Source of the DNA: Escherichia coli
Lineage (GTDB): Bacteria > Pseudomonadota > Gammaproteobacteria > Enterobacterales > Enterobacteriaceae
DNA length: 64,000 bases
Direction: 5' to 3' (one strand)
Assembly (NCBI RefSeq): GCF_051903065.1
Contig: NZ_CP178438.1
A program made the position numbers and the translations under genes. The notes under the pieces were generated by a model. It had not been told where the DNA came from. It saw nothing but the letters and a program-made list of their open reading frames with translations, and did not search any database. Numbering within the stretch: the first letter of the stretch is position 1; each line of letters opens with the position of its first letter. Positions 11,540 through 48,120 of the stretch are shown here, in pieces.

Positions 11540-13391
<1,852 letters not shown>

Positions 13392-18844: not shown

Positions 18845-18929
18845 GCCGAAGTGGCGAAATCGGTAGACGCAGTTGATTCAAAATCAACCGTAGAAATACG
18901 TGCCGGTTCGAGTCCGGCCTTCGGCACCA
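18845..18929 (+). tRNA. leuX: tRNA-Leu(CAA)
   Basis: GCCGAAGTGGCGAAATCGGTAGACGCAGTTGATTCAAAATCAACC...GGTTCGAGTCCGGCCTTCGGCACCA, 85 nt with long variable arm and encoded CCA. Confidence 0.97.
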
Positions 18930-19115: not shown

Positions 19116-20381
19116 ATGGCATTAACAGATATCAAAGTCAGAGCAGCCAAGCCAACGGATAAGCAATATAAGCTGACTGATGGTGGCGGTATGCATCTGC
19201 TTGTCCATCCAAATGGTTCTAAGTACTGGCGTTTGCAGTACCGTTATGAGGGAAAGCAAAAAATGCTGGCACTTGGGGTTTATCCTGAAATCACACTAGC
19301 GGATGCCAGAGTACGTCGTGACGAGGCGCGTAAGCTGCTTGCGAATGGCGTCGATCCGGGAGACAAAAAGAAAAATGATAAGGTTGAACAGAGTAAAGCA
19401 CGAACCTTTAAAGAAGTCGCGATTGAGTGGCATGGCACCAATAAAAAGTGGTCTGAAGATCACGCCCATCGTGTGCTAAAAAGTCTGGAAGATAATCTTT
19501 TTGCAGCGCTTGGTGAACGTAATATCGCTGAGTTAAAAACTCGAGATTTATTAGCACCCATTAAGGCCGTAGAAATGTCTGGACGTCTTGAAGTGGCCGC
19601 TCGTCTTCAGCAGCGCACTACAGCCATCATGCGCTATGCAGTGCAAAGTGGGTTAATTGATTATAACCCGGCACAAGAGATGGCTGGGGCGGTTGCTTCC
19701 TGTAATCGACAACATCGTCCCGCGCTTGAATTAAAGCGCATCCCTGAGTTGCTTACAAAAATAGATAGCTATACTGGTAGGCCGCTAACCCGATGGGCGA
19801 CAGAACTCTCTTTGCTGATCTTTATTCGGTCCAGTGAGCTGCGTTTTGCTCGTTGGTCAGAGATCGATTTCGAAGCGTCTATATGGACTATCCCACCGGA
19901 GCGGGAGCCTATTCCTGGAGTGAAACATTCCCATAGAGGCTCAAAAATGCGTACAACGCATCTAGTGCCTCTTTCAACGCAAGCTCTTGCAATTTTAAAG
20001 CAGATAAAACAGTTTTGTGGGGCCCATGACTTGATATTTATTGGTGATCACGATTCGCACAAACCCATGAGTGAGAATACGGTAAATAGTGCGTTACGGG
20101 TCATGGGGTATGATACAAAAGTAGAGGTTTGTGGTCATGGCTTTCGAACAATGGCCTGTAGTTCATTGGTCGAATCAGGTTTGTGGTCTCGTGATGCTGT
20201 TGAACGTCAGATGAGCCACATGGAGCGAAATTCAGTGAGGGCCGCGTATATCCATAAAGCAGAGCATCTGGAAGAACGCCGCTTGATGCTACAATGGTGG
20301 GCCGATTTTCTGGATGCAAACAGAGAAAAATTTATCAGTCCATTTGAATATGCAAAGATTAATAATCCATTAAAACAGTAA
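19116..20381 (+). CDS. int: P4-type tyrosine integrase
   Basis: 421-aa ORF next to tRNA; C-terminal catalytic region HGFRTMACSSL...RAAYIH. Confidence 0.9.
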   Translation: MALTDIKVRAAKPTDKQYKLTDGGGMHLLVHPNGSKYWRLQYRYEGKQKMLALGVYPEITLADARVRRDEARKLLANGVDPGDKKKNDKVEQSKARTFKEVAIEWHGTNKKWSEDHAHRVLKSLEDNLFAALGERNIAELKTRDLLAPIKAVEMSGRLEVAARLQQRTTAIMRYAVQSGLIDYNPAQEMAGAVASCNRQHRPALELKRIPELLTKIDSYTGRPLTRWATELSLLIFIRSSELRFARWSEIDFEASIWTIPPEREPIPGVKHSHRGSKMRTTHLVPLSTQALAILKQIKQFCGAHDLIFIGDHDSHKPMSENTVNSALRVMGYDTKVEVCGHGFRTMACSSLVESGLWSRDAVERQMSHMERNSVRAAYIHKAEHLEERRLMLQWWADFLDANREKFISPFEYAKINNPLKQ

Positions 20382-23455: not shown

Positions 23456-24511
23456 GGCTTTGTTGAATAAATCGAACTTTTGCTGAGTTGAAGGATCAGA
23501 TCACGCATCCTCCCGACAACACAGACCATTCCGTGGCAAAGCAAAAGTTCAGAATCACCAACTGGTCCACCTACAACAAAGCTCTCATCAACCGTGGCTC
23601 CCTCACTTTCTGGCTGGATGATGAAGCGATTCAGGCCTGGTATGAGTCGGCAACGCCTTCATCACGAGGAAGGCCCCAGCGCTATTCTGATCTCGCCATC
23701 ACCACCGTTCTGGTGATTAAACGCGTATTCCGGCTGACCCTGCGGGCTGCGCAGGGTTTTATTGATTCCATTTTTGCCCTGATGAACGTTCCGTTGCGCT
23801 GCCCGGATTACACCAGTGTCAGTAAGCGGGCAAAGTCGGTTAATGTCAGTTTCAAAACGTCCACCCGGGGTGAAATCGCACACCTGGTGATTGATTCCAC
23901 CGGGCTGAAGGTCTTTGGTGAAGGCGAATGGAAAGTCAGAAAGCACGGCAAAGAGCGCCGTCGTATCTGGCGAAAGTTGCATCTTGCTGTTGACAGCAAC
24001 ACACATGAAGTTGTCTGTGCAGACCTGTCGCTGAATAACGTCACGGACTCAGAAGCCTTCCCGGGCCTTATCCGGCAGACTCACAGAAAAATCAGGGCAG
24101 CCGCGGCAGACGGGGCTTACGATACCCGGCTCTGTCACGATGAACTGCGCCGCAAAAAAATCAGCGCGCTTATTCCTCCCCGAAAAGGAGCAGGTTACTG
24201 GCCCGGTGAGTACGCAGACCGCAACCGTGCCGTTGCTAATCAGCGGCTGAGCGGAAGCAATGCACGGTGGAAATGGACAACGGAATATAACCGTCGCTCG
24301 ATAGCGGAAACGGCAATGTACAGAATGAAGCAGTTGTTGGGAGATTCACTGACGCTGCGTGACTACGATGGTCAGGTAGCGGAAGCTATGGCCATGGTGC
24401 GTGCGTTGAACAGGATGACAAAGGCTGGGATGCCAGAAAGCGTGCGTATTGCCTGAAAATCCAGCCAGCTACAGGGTCGTTCGCACGAAATCTTATTTAT
24501 TCAACAAAGCC
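23456..24511 (+). mobile_element. IS903-like element (IS5 family)
   Basis: Terminal inverted repeats GGCTTTGTTGAATAAATC (23456) and GATTTATTCAACAAAGCC-like (to 24511); no matching flanking duplication. Confidence 0.88.
23533..24456 (+). CDS. IS903-family transposase
   Basis: VAKQKFRITNWSTYNKALINRGSLTFWLDDEAIQAWY... matches IS903/IS102 transposase as recalled; probable GTG start at 23533. Confidence 0.88.
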   Translation: MAKQKFRITNWSTYNKALINRGSLTFWLDDEAIQAWYESATPSSRGRPQRYSDLAITTVLVIKRVFRLTLRAAQGFIDSIFALMNVPLRCPDYTSVSKRAKSVNVSFKTSTRGEIAHLVIDSTGLKVFGEGEWKVRKHGKERRRIWRKLHLAVDSNTHEVVCADLSLNNVTDSEAFPGLIRQTHRKIRAAAADGAYDTRLCHDELRRKKISALIPPRKGAGYWPGEYADRNRAVANQRLSGSNARWKWTTEYNRRSIAETAMYRMKQLLGDSLTLRDYDGQVAEAMAMVRALNRMTKAGMPESVRIA

Positions 24512-25624
24512 CATACCCCTCTGAAAATCAGTCATCAACTCACCAACACATCTTCTGAAATCTGTATTAAACTTATTGCTTAAATAGATGATATAACACA
24601 TCTTCCATTGCACGGAATCAGCGAAAACTGTCATTCTGGCAATCTTAACAAGATCATTTATCGGTTAATTTTATCAGTAAACAATGGAATATCACACTGA
24701 TAAAATGAACATTCAGGGTAAGATGATAAAATTCACATAAAAAATGCTGAAGATTATTTATTTCATGCAGATAAACGATAAAATACAAGAGAGTATATTT
24801 TTCAGTGTAAGAGTCAATCGTTCATCTCCACTGACGATCACGGTCAGCACATAAACAAAGTGAGTCCTCCTGCTTAGTCATTGCGTATCAGAAACTAAAA
24901 AACAAAAGATTCTGTAAACAACGTGACATTTTTTATGACATTTCCCGAATACAGATATATCAACAAACAGTAGTCAGCGTTGAATTAATAAGTTTTACAG
25001 GGCTATACGTATCTTATAAAACCACTCAACGACCATCATCACCTGACTATTTAGCGGGAGTATCATCTGTATAAATTCCTAAATAATAACACCTGTTATT
25101 AAAATAAGAATGCTGTCAGCAGTAAATTATTAACATAACACCTGTCCACTCTATCTGTTCTTCTAACTCAACCGGCATCGAAAATATTGCCTGATTAGTG
25201 CATCATAGCCTTCTTTTTTCTTTCCCGACCATCAAAACAAATACAACATTTACAACCACACAATAAAACAAAACTAAAACAAAACTAAAACATAAGATTA
25301 ACAACACCAATCAACAGGAAAACACTGAATATTGAGGTGCCCTGTAACCTGGAGAGCGCATACGGCGCATGTGATCAACACAGCCCATTCTTTTCTGTCA
25401 TCCCCCAAATGCAGAACAAACAAGCATAACCTAATGAATATAAAATAAAATATTATTTTTCACCATCATAAAAACATCAATGTATCTTTATATAAAAACA
25501 CTGATAACATGACATAAACATTTAAAAACATAAACAAATCACAACAAAAACATTTGATAATCACTTAGTGACAAAATAAAATTGAGACGATTTTGTTATA
25601 AGAGAGGCGCCATGGAGTGAGATA

Positions 25625-26644
25625 ATGAATAACGAACAGATGCTTATCAAATGCAAAGATCCCCGTAAATGTCGGTTTTATGCTGAATATCTGAATCACA
25701 AATACCCCAATGAATTCCCTCAGTTTGCGCCTGACAACCCACAAAACTGTATCAGAAATGTTAATGCGTTTTTAAAAGAAAAGTATTGTAATACTTCAAA
25801 CAATTCTTTTGGTGTTTTTGGTTCGACTGCAGAAGAAGCTCTCAGCAAAGAAATTAATGAACTTGAAATTATTGCAGGGCAGGCAATACTGCCTGAAGAG
25901 AGTTTTCTCTGGTTGAAAACTGACGAACTTGCGACTTTCTTTACCTGGACTACTATTTATCTGTCGAAGGAAGACCATACAAATTTCCCGGAAATAAACC
26001 ATAATTCATCAGGGATAAAAAACGGAATTGAAGTCAGAAAAAGACGAACAGTTACCGATGAAACGTTAAATACTTACAAAAAAAGTAACCTTCCGGATAA
26101 TCCATCATCCCATAACGAACGAATAAAAGTAATCATTTTATATTTTGATTCCTGTCATTCTTTAATTAATAAAAATGCAAAAAGCATATACCTCGAGGAA
26201 CTCAGGCAGACGTGGCTTAAAAATAAAAGCGCTTGTCAAAAGTTTAAGTGGCTCCTTCCTGACGATGATGAAATGTGTCAGTGGTTCTGGACAAGACTGA
26301 AACAAAAACAGGATGAAACACATCCGGTACATAACCCGGTGACCCGGTGGTTCATACCATCTTCAACGAAAGAATATTATCTTGCCTCTCTCGTCGCCTT
26401 TGCTTTATGGAAAGAGGCACCTGATACCATTGAACTGTTCAGAACACGCATAAATCATGCCTGGCATCAAAAAAAACAAAAAGACAAATATCGGAATGAT
26501 GGTAAAAAGGCTATTAATATACATATAAGAAGCAATGCGAAAGAAATGCTTGATGAACTCAGAACTGTTTACGGTCTGAGAACAGGAGAGTTTTTTGAAA
26601 TGCTGATTACAGAAAAATATCTTGAACACAAGCGAAGGAAGTAA
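25625..26644 (+). CDS. Hypothetical protein, AT-rich, lysine-rich C-terminus
   Basis: 339-aa ORF preceded by GAGAGG RBS-like sequence; no recognisable motif. Confidence 0.5.
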   Translation: MNNEQMLIKCKDPRKCRFYAEYLNHKYPNEFPQFAPDNPQNCIRNVNAFLKEKYCNTSNNSFGVFGSTAEEALSKEINELEIIAGQAILPEESFLWLKTDELATFFTWTTIYLSKEDHTNFPEINHNSSGIKNGIEVRKRRTVTDETLNTYKKSNLPDNPSSHNERIKVIILYFDSCHSLINKNAKSIYLEELRQTWLKNKSACQKFKWLLPDDDEMCQWFWTRLKQKQDETHPVHNPVTRWFIPSSTKEYYLASLVAFALWKEAPDTIELFRTRINHAWHQKKQKDKYRNDGKKAINIHIRSNAKEMLDELRTVYGLRTGEFFEMLITEKYLEHKRRK

Positions 26645-26753
26645 TTCATTACCTGTTACATTCTAAATAATCTCAGACAGATATTATCTCCGTGAATCCC
26701 CCGCCACCTTTCCGGTGCGCGGGGTTTTGTCTTTTTTCACCGGGAATACATGT

Positions 26754-27581
26754 ATGAATCCGTCTGATGCCATTGAGGCAATTGAAAAACCGCTCTCCTC
26801 CCTGCCTTACTCACTTTCCCGTCACATCCTGGAACATCTGCGCAAACTCACCAGCCACGAACCCGTGATTGGCATTATGGGGAAAAGCGGGGCCGGTAAA
26901 TCCTCACTCTGTAATGCACTGTTTCAGGGGGAGGTCACCCCGGTCAGTGATGTTCACGCCGGCACCCGGGAAGTGCAGCGCTTCCGTCTGAGTGGCCATG
27001 GTCACAGCATGGTTATCACTGACCTGCCCGGGGTGGGCGAGAGCCGTGACAGGGATGCAGAGTATGAAGCCCTGTACCGTAACATTCTGCCTGAACTTGA
27101 CCTGGTACTGTGGCTGATTAAAGCCGATGACCGTGCCTTGTCTGTGGATGAGTATTTCTGGCGACACATTCTGCACCGGGGACATCAGCAGGTGCTGTTT
27201 GTGGTGACGCAGGCCGATAAAACGGAGCCCTGCCATGAATGGGATATGGCCGGTATTCAGCCTTCTCCCGCACAGGCACAGAACATTCGCGAAAAAACGG
27301 AGGCGGTATTCCGTCTGTTCCGGCCCGTACATCCGGTTGTGGCCGTATCGGCTCGCACCGGCTGGGAACTGGATACGCTGGTCAGTGCGCTCATGACAGC
27401 GCTTCCCGACCATGCCGCCAGTCCCCTGATGACCCGCCTGCAGGACGAGCTGCGCACGGAATCTGTCCGCGCTCAGGCCCGTGAACAGTTTACCGGTGCG
27501 GTGGACCGGATATTTGACACGGCGGAGAGCGTCTGTATTGCCTCTGTTGCCCGCGCGGTATGGAACTGGATTTTCTTCTGA
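26754..27581 (+). CDS. YeeP/YkfA/YfjP-family GTPase
   Basis: P-loop GIMGKSGAGKSSL, DLPG switch motif, TQADK; likely start MNPSDAIEAIE at 26754. Confidence 0.8.
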   Translation: MNPSDAIEAIEKPLSSLPYSLSRHILEHLRKLTSHEPVIGIMGKSGAGKSSLCNALFQGEVTPVSDVHAGTREVQRFRLSGHGHSMVITDLPGVGESRDRDAEYEALYRNILPELDLVLWLIKADDRALSVDEYFWRHILHRGHQQVLFVVTQADKTEPCHEWDMAGIQPSPAQAQNIREKTEAVFRLFRPVHPVVAVSARTGWELDTLVSALMTALPDHAASPLMTRLQDELRTESVRAQAREQFTGAVDRIFDTAESVCIASVARAVWNWIFF

Positions 27582-41223: not shown

Positions 41224-44780
<3,557 letters not shown>

Positions 44781-47553: not shown

Positions 47554-48120
47554 TCAGAAGTGAGGCTTACGAGGACGCCCTGCTGCAGGACGTTCAGGAA
47601 CTTCATTGCAGCCGTAGGCACACAGCCCGTCTTTTTGCTCTTCTTTCGCCAGATAATGCAGGGCACCGCGAATATTATTGATGCTTTCAGGATCGTTGTG
47701 GCGCACAGGAATGTTGATGTTGTATGTATAATGCGGCTGATATGTACAGCGGTGTGCCGAACCGCTGTTATGCGTAATAGACCGCCAGCATTCCGTAATC
47801 CGCTCCGCAAAGGGATATATTTTTTTAACCCTCTGACGATCGATCCAGAAAACCGCATGCGCATGAAAACCATGATCAACCGTCCATTCAATCACCCAGA
47901 AGAAGCCAACGATATTTTCAAATTGTTCTACCTGCTCCAGCAGCATACGCAACTGCAATTCAAGCCAGCGATGATCAGGTTGTAAGAAATCAGGCGTATC
48001 TTTCCTGTAGAAGAAATCCATGCGTAAGGCCCGCAGGCAGGAATAGCGTGCCATCATTTGATTGATGTGATTGTCAAGTAAAGCGGTAAAAAACCAGTTT
48101 GGTGTATAAGATTTAGGCAT
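47554..48120 (-). CDS. YagK/YfjJ-family protein, paralog 2
   Basis: 188-aa ORF with FHAHAVFWIDRQ His-hydrophobic-His motif. Confidence 0.55.
   Translation of the reverse strand: MPKSYTPNWFFTALLDNHINQMMARYSCLRALRMDFFYRKDTPDFLQPDHRWLELQLRMLLEQVEQFENIVGFFWVIEWTVDHGFHAHAVFWIDRQRVKKIYPFAERITECWRSITHNSGSAHRCTYQPHYTYNINIPVRHNDPESINNIRGALHYLAKEEQKDGLCAYGCNEVPERPAAGRPRKPHF

Follow-up and report, generated by a model that had tools for sequence, protein, structure and literature searches.

In the Shewanella prophage CP4So, H-NS binds the promoter of alpA, as shown by EMSA, and represses the gene 19-fold (PMC5148205; reviewed in PMC12449154). Excision of E. coli CP4-57 is reportedly not under H-NS control (PMC5148205). 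The CP4So promoter region resembles the 1.1-kb tract described here in being AT-rich and non-coding, and in lying on a CP4-family island with a P4-type integrase at a GC content far below that of the host. Furthermore, intact relatives of the tract adjoin alpA, and the island on which it lies encodes its own H-NS paralog. The two regions differ in that H-NS binding was demonstrated for CP4So and is predicted for the tract, and in that the alpA side has been deleted in the window (the whole stretch of E. coli DNA that was analysed, 64,000 nucleotides). They also differ in that the AT-richness of the tract can be explained by a neutral mutational equilibrium, without selection for silencing.

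Autoregulated operators of ribbon-helix-helix (RHH) proteins are a second point of comparison. These include the operators of CopG/RepB-type plasmid regulators, the antitoxins ParD, TacA and FitA, TraM, and MatP with its site matS. Like them, the tract carries a short perfect palindrome in or next to the promoter of an RHH-domain gene, and its palindrome changes together with the protein lineage. The 13-bp palindrome of the tract is also similar in format to matS. Classical RHH regulators are 45-100 aa long, whereas the regulator encoded here is about 320-340 aa and has a large, all-helical N-terminal part.

The window surrounds the leuX tRNA gene (18845-18926) with an adjoining P4-type integrase (19116-20381), and the tract lies in an E. 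coli leuX island. The tract and its immediate neighbours are as follows:

23456-24511, plus strand: IS903/IS102-type (IS5-family) insertion sequence, which cuts the tract short on the left
24512-25624, no strand: the tract itself, AT-rich (33% GC) and free of ORFs; intergenic DNA upstream of the 339-aa ORF
24512-25479, no strand: distal part of the tract; evolves fast, contains indel hot spots and is apparently for the most part unconstrained spacer
25480-25624, plus strand: conserved proximal control region of the 339-aa ORF, with 17% variable columns
25625-26644, plus strand: 339-aa ORF of an uncharacterised regulator family, with a C-terminal RHH domain predicted from its modelled structure
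26715-27581, plus strand: the next gene, a YeeP/YkfA/YfjP-like GTPase (Pfam MMR_HSR1, E = 2.8e-15; RefSeq annotation)

The tract is probably the IS-truncated upstream region of an island operon encoding an RHH regulator and a GTPase, made up of a control region of ~150 bp and a mostly unconstrained spacer that would be coated by H-NS. It is a real feature, but a largely ordinary one. An earlier note, made from the letters alone, had described a 1.1-kb AT-rich stretch without any ORF of at least 60 aa upstream of a GTPase/dynamin module, and its picture of a long, non-coding tract of regulatory flavour on a horizontally acquired island holds. The tract does lie upstream of that module, but the gene it directly precedes is the 339-aa ORF and not the GTPase itself.

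The GC content of positions 24501-25500 is 0.33-0.34, compared with about 0.50-0.55 in the flanks. The longest ORFs within the tract are 44-45 aa, and a 59-aa minus-strand ORF at 25565-25744 merely overlaps the start of the downstream gene. In random sequences with the dinucleotide (first-order Markov) composition of the tract, the mean length of the longest ORF is 68 +/- 18 aa; an ORF of at least 60 aa is present in 63% of them, and 4.5% are as ORF-poor as the tract, so the absence of ORFs is only mildly unusual for this composition. Runs of at least four A/T are enriched (34 versus an expected 21.8 +/- 4.2), and no 10-11 bp phasing of these runs was detected in the tract.

The left edge of the tract is set by the end of the IS903/IS102-type element, and the native tract therefore starts at about position 24512. 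The element has perfect terminal inverted repeats GGCTTTGTTGAATAAAT at 23456-23472 and 24495-24511, which enclose a transposase gene (23488-24456) with DDE_Tnp_1 domains. No target-site duplication flanks it, as the nine bases on each side differ, and the element thus marks an IS-mediated deletion junction. Other genomes part from the window to the left of ~24510. A single other genome shares both the IS903 junction of the window and its dynamin/RdcB/patatin cargo. The right edge is the ATG of the 339-aa ORF at 25625.

Among 5426 complete E. coli genomes, 243 contain the full-length tract at 85-100% identity. It is unannotated in every one of them, is never plasmid-borne and is always accompanied by the 339-aa ORF, which is itself found at a coverage of at least 80% in 244 genomes. 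Plasmid and phage collections yielded no DNA homologs of the tract. Every other copy examined begins with an alpA-like HTH gene and a hypothetical gene of 190 aa, which are followed by the degraded remnant of an IS1, a spacer of ~73 bp, the tract, the ORF, the YeeP-like GTPase and, usually, Ag43. Ag43 adhesins, toxin-antitoxin pairs and GTPase/dynamin modules are frequent cargo of CP4-type islands. Across genomes, IS1, IS3 and IS903-type insertions are known in or at the tract, including an IS1 inside it in one genome. The unannotated 1.1-kb gap that the tract leaves in about 4.5% of complete E. coli genomes, O104:H4 outbreak strains among them, is accounted for mostly as neutral spacer rather than as a hidden gene or RNA. 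In E. coli O104:H4 2011C-3493, the region precedes O3K_RS04210.

The part of the tract next to the ORF contains the following elements:

25554-25582, plus strand: predicted sigma-70-like promoter TTGATA-17-TAAAAT, with 10/12 matches, 43 nt upstream of the ATG
25560-25572, no strand: palindromic operator-like site ATCACTTAGTGAC (consensus ATCACTnAGTGAT), 13 bp, in the promoter spacer
25614-25617, plus strand: Shine-Dalgarno GGAG, 7 nt before the ATG at 25625, as read from the sequence

Invariant runs occur at 25542-25571 (30 nt, permutation P = 0.0025) and at 25589-25608. Only the 110-150 bp closest to the ORF align with the corresponding DNA of Edwardsiella, Rahnella and Yersinia, at 63-69% identity. 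These proximal ~150 bp are the only clearly functional, constrained part of the tract. The earlier note had overlooked both the constrained proximal promoter and the palindrome, and it was promoter prediction, one of the checks it had proposed, that returned the site at 25554-25582 as the best in the tract. Both promoter hexamers are conserved within E. coli; neither the -10 nor the -35 is clearly so in Rahnella and Yersinia, which leaves the exact position of the predicted promoter uncertain. Promoter-like sites in the tract as a whole are no more numerous than in shuffled sequences.

The palindrome ATCACTnAGTGAT is invariant in the alignment of the four genera E. coli, Edwardsiella, Rahnella and Yersinia. 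Furthermore, it occurs once per locus in seven lineages, 63-78 nt upstream of the ATG. More distant members of the regulator family have related palindromes near their start codons, namely AAACTACATAGTAGTTT, AACTACTACGTAGTAGTT, TTACTACG-N9-CGTAGTGA and CCACGTAGTGG, the last two of which were read by eye. These palindromes share a TAGT(G/A) half-site core. Such differences between protein lineages would be expected of a site in co-evolution with the protein that binds it. As the C-terminus of the 339-aa ORF models as an RHH DNA-binding domain, autoregulation through the palindrome is likely, and the site is a putative operator of the 339-aa protein. ATCACTnAGTGAT is a precise candidate operator, and offers a concrete and cheap entry to the control of cargo in the common CP4-type islands.

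The Pfam similarity of the regulator is below threshold, and no significant structural match was found for its all-helical N-terminal part. Homologs at 48-58% identity are encoded in Edwardsiella, Rahnella, Yersinia and two unassigned contigs, one of them metagenomic. A profile search expanded the family to 491 representative clusters at 50% identity. When genome contigs were scanned with the family, a single locus was found, in E. coli-like DNA within a Collinsella metagenome-assembled genome; a scan of viral contigs gave no matches. In the relatives, the regulator gene is divergent from an alpA/yagK(yfjJ) module, with a gene-free gap between the two. The downstream gene, labelled 'hypothetical protein' or 'transcriptional regulator', can be recognised as encoding a predicted RHH protein of a large family whose genes consistently form divergent pairs with the alpA/yagK module. 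Nothing specific to the tract emerged from the literature on YfjJ/YagK or on yeeP together with H-NS.

The rate of evolution of the remaining, distal part was estimated from an alignment of the window with ten other copies, that is, 11 sequences from perhaps 6-7 lineages. Pairwise identity is 0.916 for the tract and 0.928 for codon position 3 of the ORF, and reaches 0.97-0.98 at codon positions 1 and 2. The proportion of variable columns is 22% at 24512-24900, 49% (including indels) at 24901-25330, 25% at 25331-25480 and 17% at 25481-25624, against 19% at codon position 3 of the ORF. With the minor allele crudely treated as the derived one, substitutions in the tract are balanced (85 S>W versus 79 W>S), which gives an equilibrium GC of ~0.31 where 0.33 is observed. 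At the third codon positions of adjacent genes, substitutions assigned in the same way are unbalanced, with 55 from G/C to A/T and 28 from A/T to G/C. From these rates and from the balance of substitutions, most of the tract behaves as unconstrained DNA at the AT-biased mutational equilibrium of the host. The distal part cannot be aligned between genera. Mutational equilibrium alone can therefore explain AT-rich spacers on islands, without the assumption of selection for H-NS binding.

H-NS-family binding to the tract is plausible from its composition and from the CP4So precedent. The tract has 33% GC in a genome of roughly 50% GC, a difference that makes coating by H-NS-family proteins very likely. 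An H-NS paralog is encoded on the island at 49931-50371 of the window, and sister islands encode Hha. Four matches to the H-NS motif TCGATAAATT, with up to two mismatches, lie within the tract, but the count across the window equals the expectation from shuffled sequences. As motif matches are not enriched beyond composition, occupancy of the tract by H-NS is something that composition and precedent suggest rather than the motif.

Taken together, these observations suggest how the locus may work. The operon would start with the 339-aa RHH regulator and continue into the YeeP-like GTPase, followed in the window by the dynamin/RdcB/patatin module. Positions 25480-25624 would act as its control region, with a sigma-70-like promoter whose spacer holds the 13-bp palindrome. 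The regulator would bind this palindrome at 25560-25572 as an RHH dimer and so regulate its own operon; conservation of the site and the modelled RHH fold were found directly, and binding and autoregulation are proposed on that basis. The remaining ~970 bp would be non-coding spacer under little or no constraint, with a base composition that has moved to the host's AT-rich mutational equilibrium. Such a spacer would gather indels and slippage events, including an 11-nt repeat, and tolerate IS insertions. Coating by H-NS-family proteins would help to keep the operon silent, as composition and the precedent of a related element suggest.

The ancestral position of the tract, as in other genera, would be a divergent AT-rich region of 0.5-1.7 kb between the alpA/yagK(yfjJ) module and the regulator gene. 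In E. coli the far side of this region would have been lost through the old IS1, and in the window through the IS903-type element. Since the alpA side is deleted in the window, the tract now serves only the regulator/GTPase operon.

The spacer may instead be a selectively maintained core element of a widespread and largely uncharacterised family of CP4-type integrative islands, in which an alpA/yagK(yfjJ) module diverges from the gene of a ~320-aa RHH regulator. It would serve either as an on/off switch or insulator between the two modules, at which H-NS-family proteins nucleate, or as a post-excision replication origin for the Gp2-like YagK/YfjJ protein. Its length and AT-richness would then be preserved rather than accidental, and the three AT-rich tracts of the window would be copies or remnants of one element. 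This is unlikely, but it has some observations in its favour. Eight non-E. coli lineages have a gene-free gap of 0.5-1.7 kb (1089, 1557, 1377, 565, 1683, 1128, 723 and 516 bp) in the same position, at 36-42% GC versus 46-50% for the loci, although their regulators are only 25-58% identical to that of the window. Bacterial genomes are generally expected to shed DNA that has no function in the course of time. The persistence of a spacer of at least 0.5 kb across genera does not fit well with a purely junk spacer, and it is this persistence that leaves a modest chance for a selected switch or origin. Within E. coli, too, the length of the tract is stable at 1056-1115 bp.

The origin variant draws on the proteins at these loci. 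YagK/YfjJ proteins match the REP_ORF2-G2P domain and so resemble the gene II initiator (Gp2) of filamentous phages, and the regulator weakly matches RepB-RCR_reg, a family named for the regulation of rolling-circle plasmid replication. The intact relatives of the tract share with the intergenic region of filamentous (Ff) phages and with rolling-circle double-strand origins a long non-coding region beside the genes for a Gp2-like protein and for a protein weakly similar to a regulator of rolling-circle replication. They differ in that no conserved nick-site hairpin or repeats and no cross-genus sequence conservation were found, and the Gp2-like gene is absent from the copy in the window. A search of the E. 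coli tract and four homologous intergenic regions yielded no iterons and no shared hairpins or repeats.

The other two AT-rich tracts of the window bear on the same question:

48121-49154, no strand: second AT-rich tract, 34% GC, directly 5' of a yagK/yfjJ-like gene at 47554-48120 (minus strand); right end cut by an IS fragment
54066-55579, no strand: third AT-rich tract, 38% GC, directly 5' of a yagK/yfjJ-like gene at 53334-54065 (minus strand)

The earlier note had pointed to similar tracts at 48121-49080 and 54120-55579, the latter with a duplicated segment around 54993-55042, and both are recovered here at the GC contents given; AAAATACGTGTATA occurs exactly twice in the third tract, at 54991 and 55027. 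Their longest ORFs measure 82 aa and 67 aa and are located at the margins of the tracts. Because both are directly 5' of yagK/yfjJ-like genes, they hold the same architectural position as the ancestral form of the first tract, and all three tracts of the window adjoin this position or derive from it. Parts of the second and third tracts recur, in most cases without annotation, in numbers of E. coli genomes that range from hundreds to about 1900. No DNA similarity was detected among the three.

Two features of the distal part likewise do not fit well with a purely junk spacer; they are listed here with an indel hot spot:

24664-24710, no strand: inverted repeat GTTAATTTTATCAGT / ACTGATAAAATGAAC, with TGATAAAAT present three times locally
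24853-24876, no strand: 24-nt block AAACAAAGTGAGTCCTCCTGCTTA, invariant among the 11 E. coli copies; the minus strand reads AGGAGG
25086-25145, no strand: indel hot spot, a 49-bp segment between direct repeats ATAACACCTGT

The 60-column window that starts at 24839 and holds the invariant block has just 4 variable columns (permutation P = 0.0005), and this block counts in favour of a selected spacer. The inverted repeat has an RNA fold z of only -1.8, and no compensatory changes were seen in it among the E. coli copies. At the hot spot, the 49-bp segment or a neighbouring one is deleted in some lineages.

Against selective maintenance, nothing outside the operator is conserved between genera, and the distal part evolves at or above the rate of third codon positions while sitting at compositional equilibrium. 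The ORF also remains intact in spite of IS insertions, including an IS3 in strain XYEH3934 that leaves only about 450 bp of the tract. Furthermore, all E. coli copies, that of the window included, have lost the yagK side, and yet the tract persists with its character unchanged. The initiator-like yagK gene is absent beside the tract.

It is improbable that the tract encodes a small RNA, or forms a long 5' leader with a regulatory structure or Rho-dependent attenuation, as the earlier note had in part suggested. On the plus strand, A and C are abundant and G is scarce (AT skew +0.18, GC skew -0.23), which is the composition of Rho-loading sites, and the invariant block at 24853-24876 holds CCUCCU on the plus strand. 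A sliding RNAalifold scan also picked out two windows with a consensus-fold z of about -3.2 under a crude column-shuffle control. Under dinucleotide shuffling, the z-scores of these two candidates were just -0.6 and -1.8, with no convincing covariation, and they were rejected. Conserved RNA structure was not found among the E. coli copies, a comparison whose power is limited by their low divergence and by the lack of an alignment beyond E. coli.

The covariance-model search that the earlier note had named as a check found no structured RNA. Rfam gave no match in the tract at the gathering threshold, and at E <= 10 gave only a chance match to the microRNA mir-137 (16.9 bits versus a cutoff of 56.7 bits); homologous intergenic regions of other genera had no Rfam match either. 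Neither a terminator-like site nor an RfaH-recruiting ops element was found in the tract, and its distal part is not conserved beyond E. coli. A long 5' leader is not indicated, because the conserved promoter-like site lies 43 nt from the ATG, and promoter and operator together lie only 43-65 nt from it.

It is very improbable that the tract is the remnant of one or more decayed genes, disrupted long ago by IS1 at the left edge. In its favour, an old, degraded IS1 adjoins every other E. coli copy of the tract, and the rate of change in the left third is that of third codon positions; a conserved minus-strand AGGAGG is followed by ATG/GTG and a 30-aa ORF, and gene callers occasionally predict proteins of 62-74 aa on the tract. 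Against it, none of the other genera examined has a gene in this position, and homology searches for the decayed genes that the earlier note had allowed for came back without a true match. Six-frame translations with stops masked as X had no match in Pfam or NCBIfam at E <= 1, and the best E of tblastn with 19 neighbouring island proteins against six variants of the tract was 0.17. When the most ORF-like frame, that of the minus strand with read-through, was compared with 5.8 billion proteins, the matches were all spurious E. coli gene calls on this same DNA, and none was a longer, intact homolog. None of the small ORFs is intact in all 11 copies, and the best candidates have gathered many amino-acid changes or stops; the 30-aa ORF beside the invariant block has many amino-acid changes and carries stop codons in 2/11 copies.

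The preferred account, of a short control region followed outwards by freely drifting spacer, also accommodates the tandem repeat that the earlier note had placed at about 25266-25289, and which TRF confirmed:

25264-25292, no strand: tandem repeat with unit TAAAACAAAAC; period 11, 2.6 copies, 100% matches

The repeat is an indel hot spot and lies where the tract is least conserved, ~260 nt upstream of the conserved promoter-like site and ~330 nt upstream of the ATG. It differs from the variable-number or phase-variable repeats of promoters in lying outside the conserved promoter and in having a single extra unit in a single lineage, and no link to expression is indicated. It resembles them in that the copy number of the 11-nt unit differs (2.6 versus 1.6) between near-identical strains. 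Among 27 loci, the window and locus L002 alone have the extra unit; all others, including the nearest relative that shares the IS junction, have 1.6 copies. The extra unit is a recent, lineage-specific slippage duplication.

The 339-aa protein encoded directly downstream of the first AT-rich, ORF-free tract (24512–25624) belongs to a large, uncharacterised family comprising 491 clusters at 50% identity. A ribbon-helix-helix (RHH) DNA-binding domain is predicted at the C-terminus of the family, and the N-terminal part is predicted to be large, helical and novel. In CP4-type integrative islands, the family gene is consistently divergent from an alpA/yagK(yfjJ) module. This pairing extends from the Enterobacterales as far as a marine metagenome contig from Tara, on which smpB adjoins the element. 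A protein 96% identical to the E. coli one is also encoded on the 7.2-kb contig JAIJJM010000108.1 (locus L021) of a 'Collinsella sp.' metagenome-assembled genome; almost certainly, this contig is E. coli DNA that has contaminated the Collinsella genome bin.

25625–26644, plus strand: 339-aa 'hypothetical protein / transcriptional regulator', with relatives at homologous loci L014, L016, L019 and L022–L027
27781–32134: dynamin-family protein (794 aa), RdcB-family protein and patatin-like phospholipase, a cargo module after the GTPase

Of the sister genomes inspected, a single one shares this cargo module with the window; the remaining inspected copies carry Ag43 or an IS element in its place.

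Within the first tract, 24 nt (24853–24876) are without variation across 11 diverged E. coli copies, and the surrounding DNA is fast-evolving. On the minus strand, this block presents AGGAGG 17 nt ahead of a GTG/ATG, and the 30-aa ORF opened by that codon is not conserved. Mid-way in the homologous intergenic region of Yersinia kristensenii (L019, 5447–5485) lies a perfect, GC-rich, 16-bp hairpin with a 7-nt loop, TTATTACCGCCCCCTT / AAGGGGGCGGTAATAA, which has no counterpart in E. coli. The hairpin looks like a bidirectional terminator, in which case some transcript would end within the Y. kristensenii spacer.

The third AT-rich tract (54066–55579) is far commoner than the first among complete E. 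coli genomes, being at least partly kept in 1879 of 5426, with identity down to 60–80%. It is mostly without annotation in the genomes that carry it. Within this tract the 14-nt sequence AAAATACGTGTATA occurs as two exact copies, at 54991 and 55027.

Small-RNA matches and an H-NS paralog lie elsewhere in the window.

11629–11802 and 12636–12830: two naRNA4 matches side by side, plus a full-length match to Ysr276 (180 bits)
41332–41454, plus strand: full-length isrC match (150 bits)
42691–44214: ltrA-like ORF of a group II intron, with an Rfam Intron_gpII match at 44218–44304
49931–50371, minus strand: island-encoded H-NS paralog (146 aa) with Histone_HNS C- and N-terminal domains

The naRNA4 and Ysr276 matches are upstream of the island, on the core chromosome. 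In K-12, isrC resides in the flu/Ag43 leader. The isrC match here looks like a relic of an Ag43 leader, because the region downstream is interrupted by IS fragments and the group II intron. The H-NS paralog gene is surrounded by IS fragments, near the second AT-rich tract (48121–49154).
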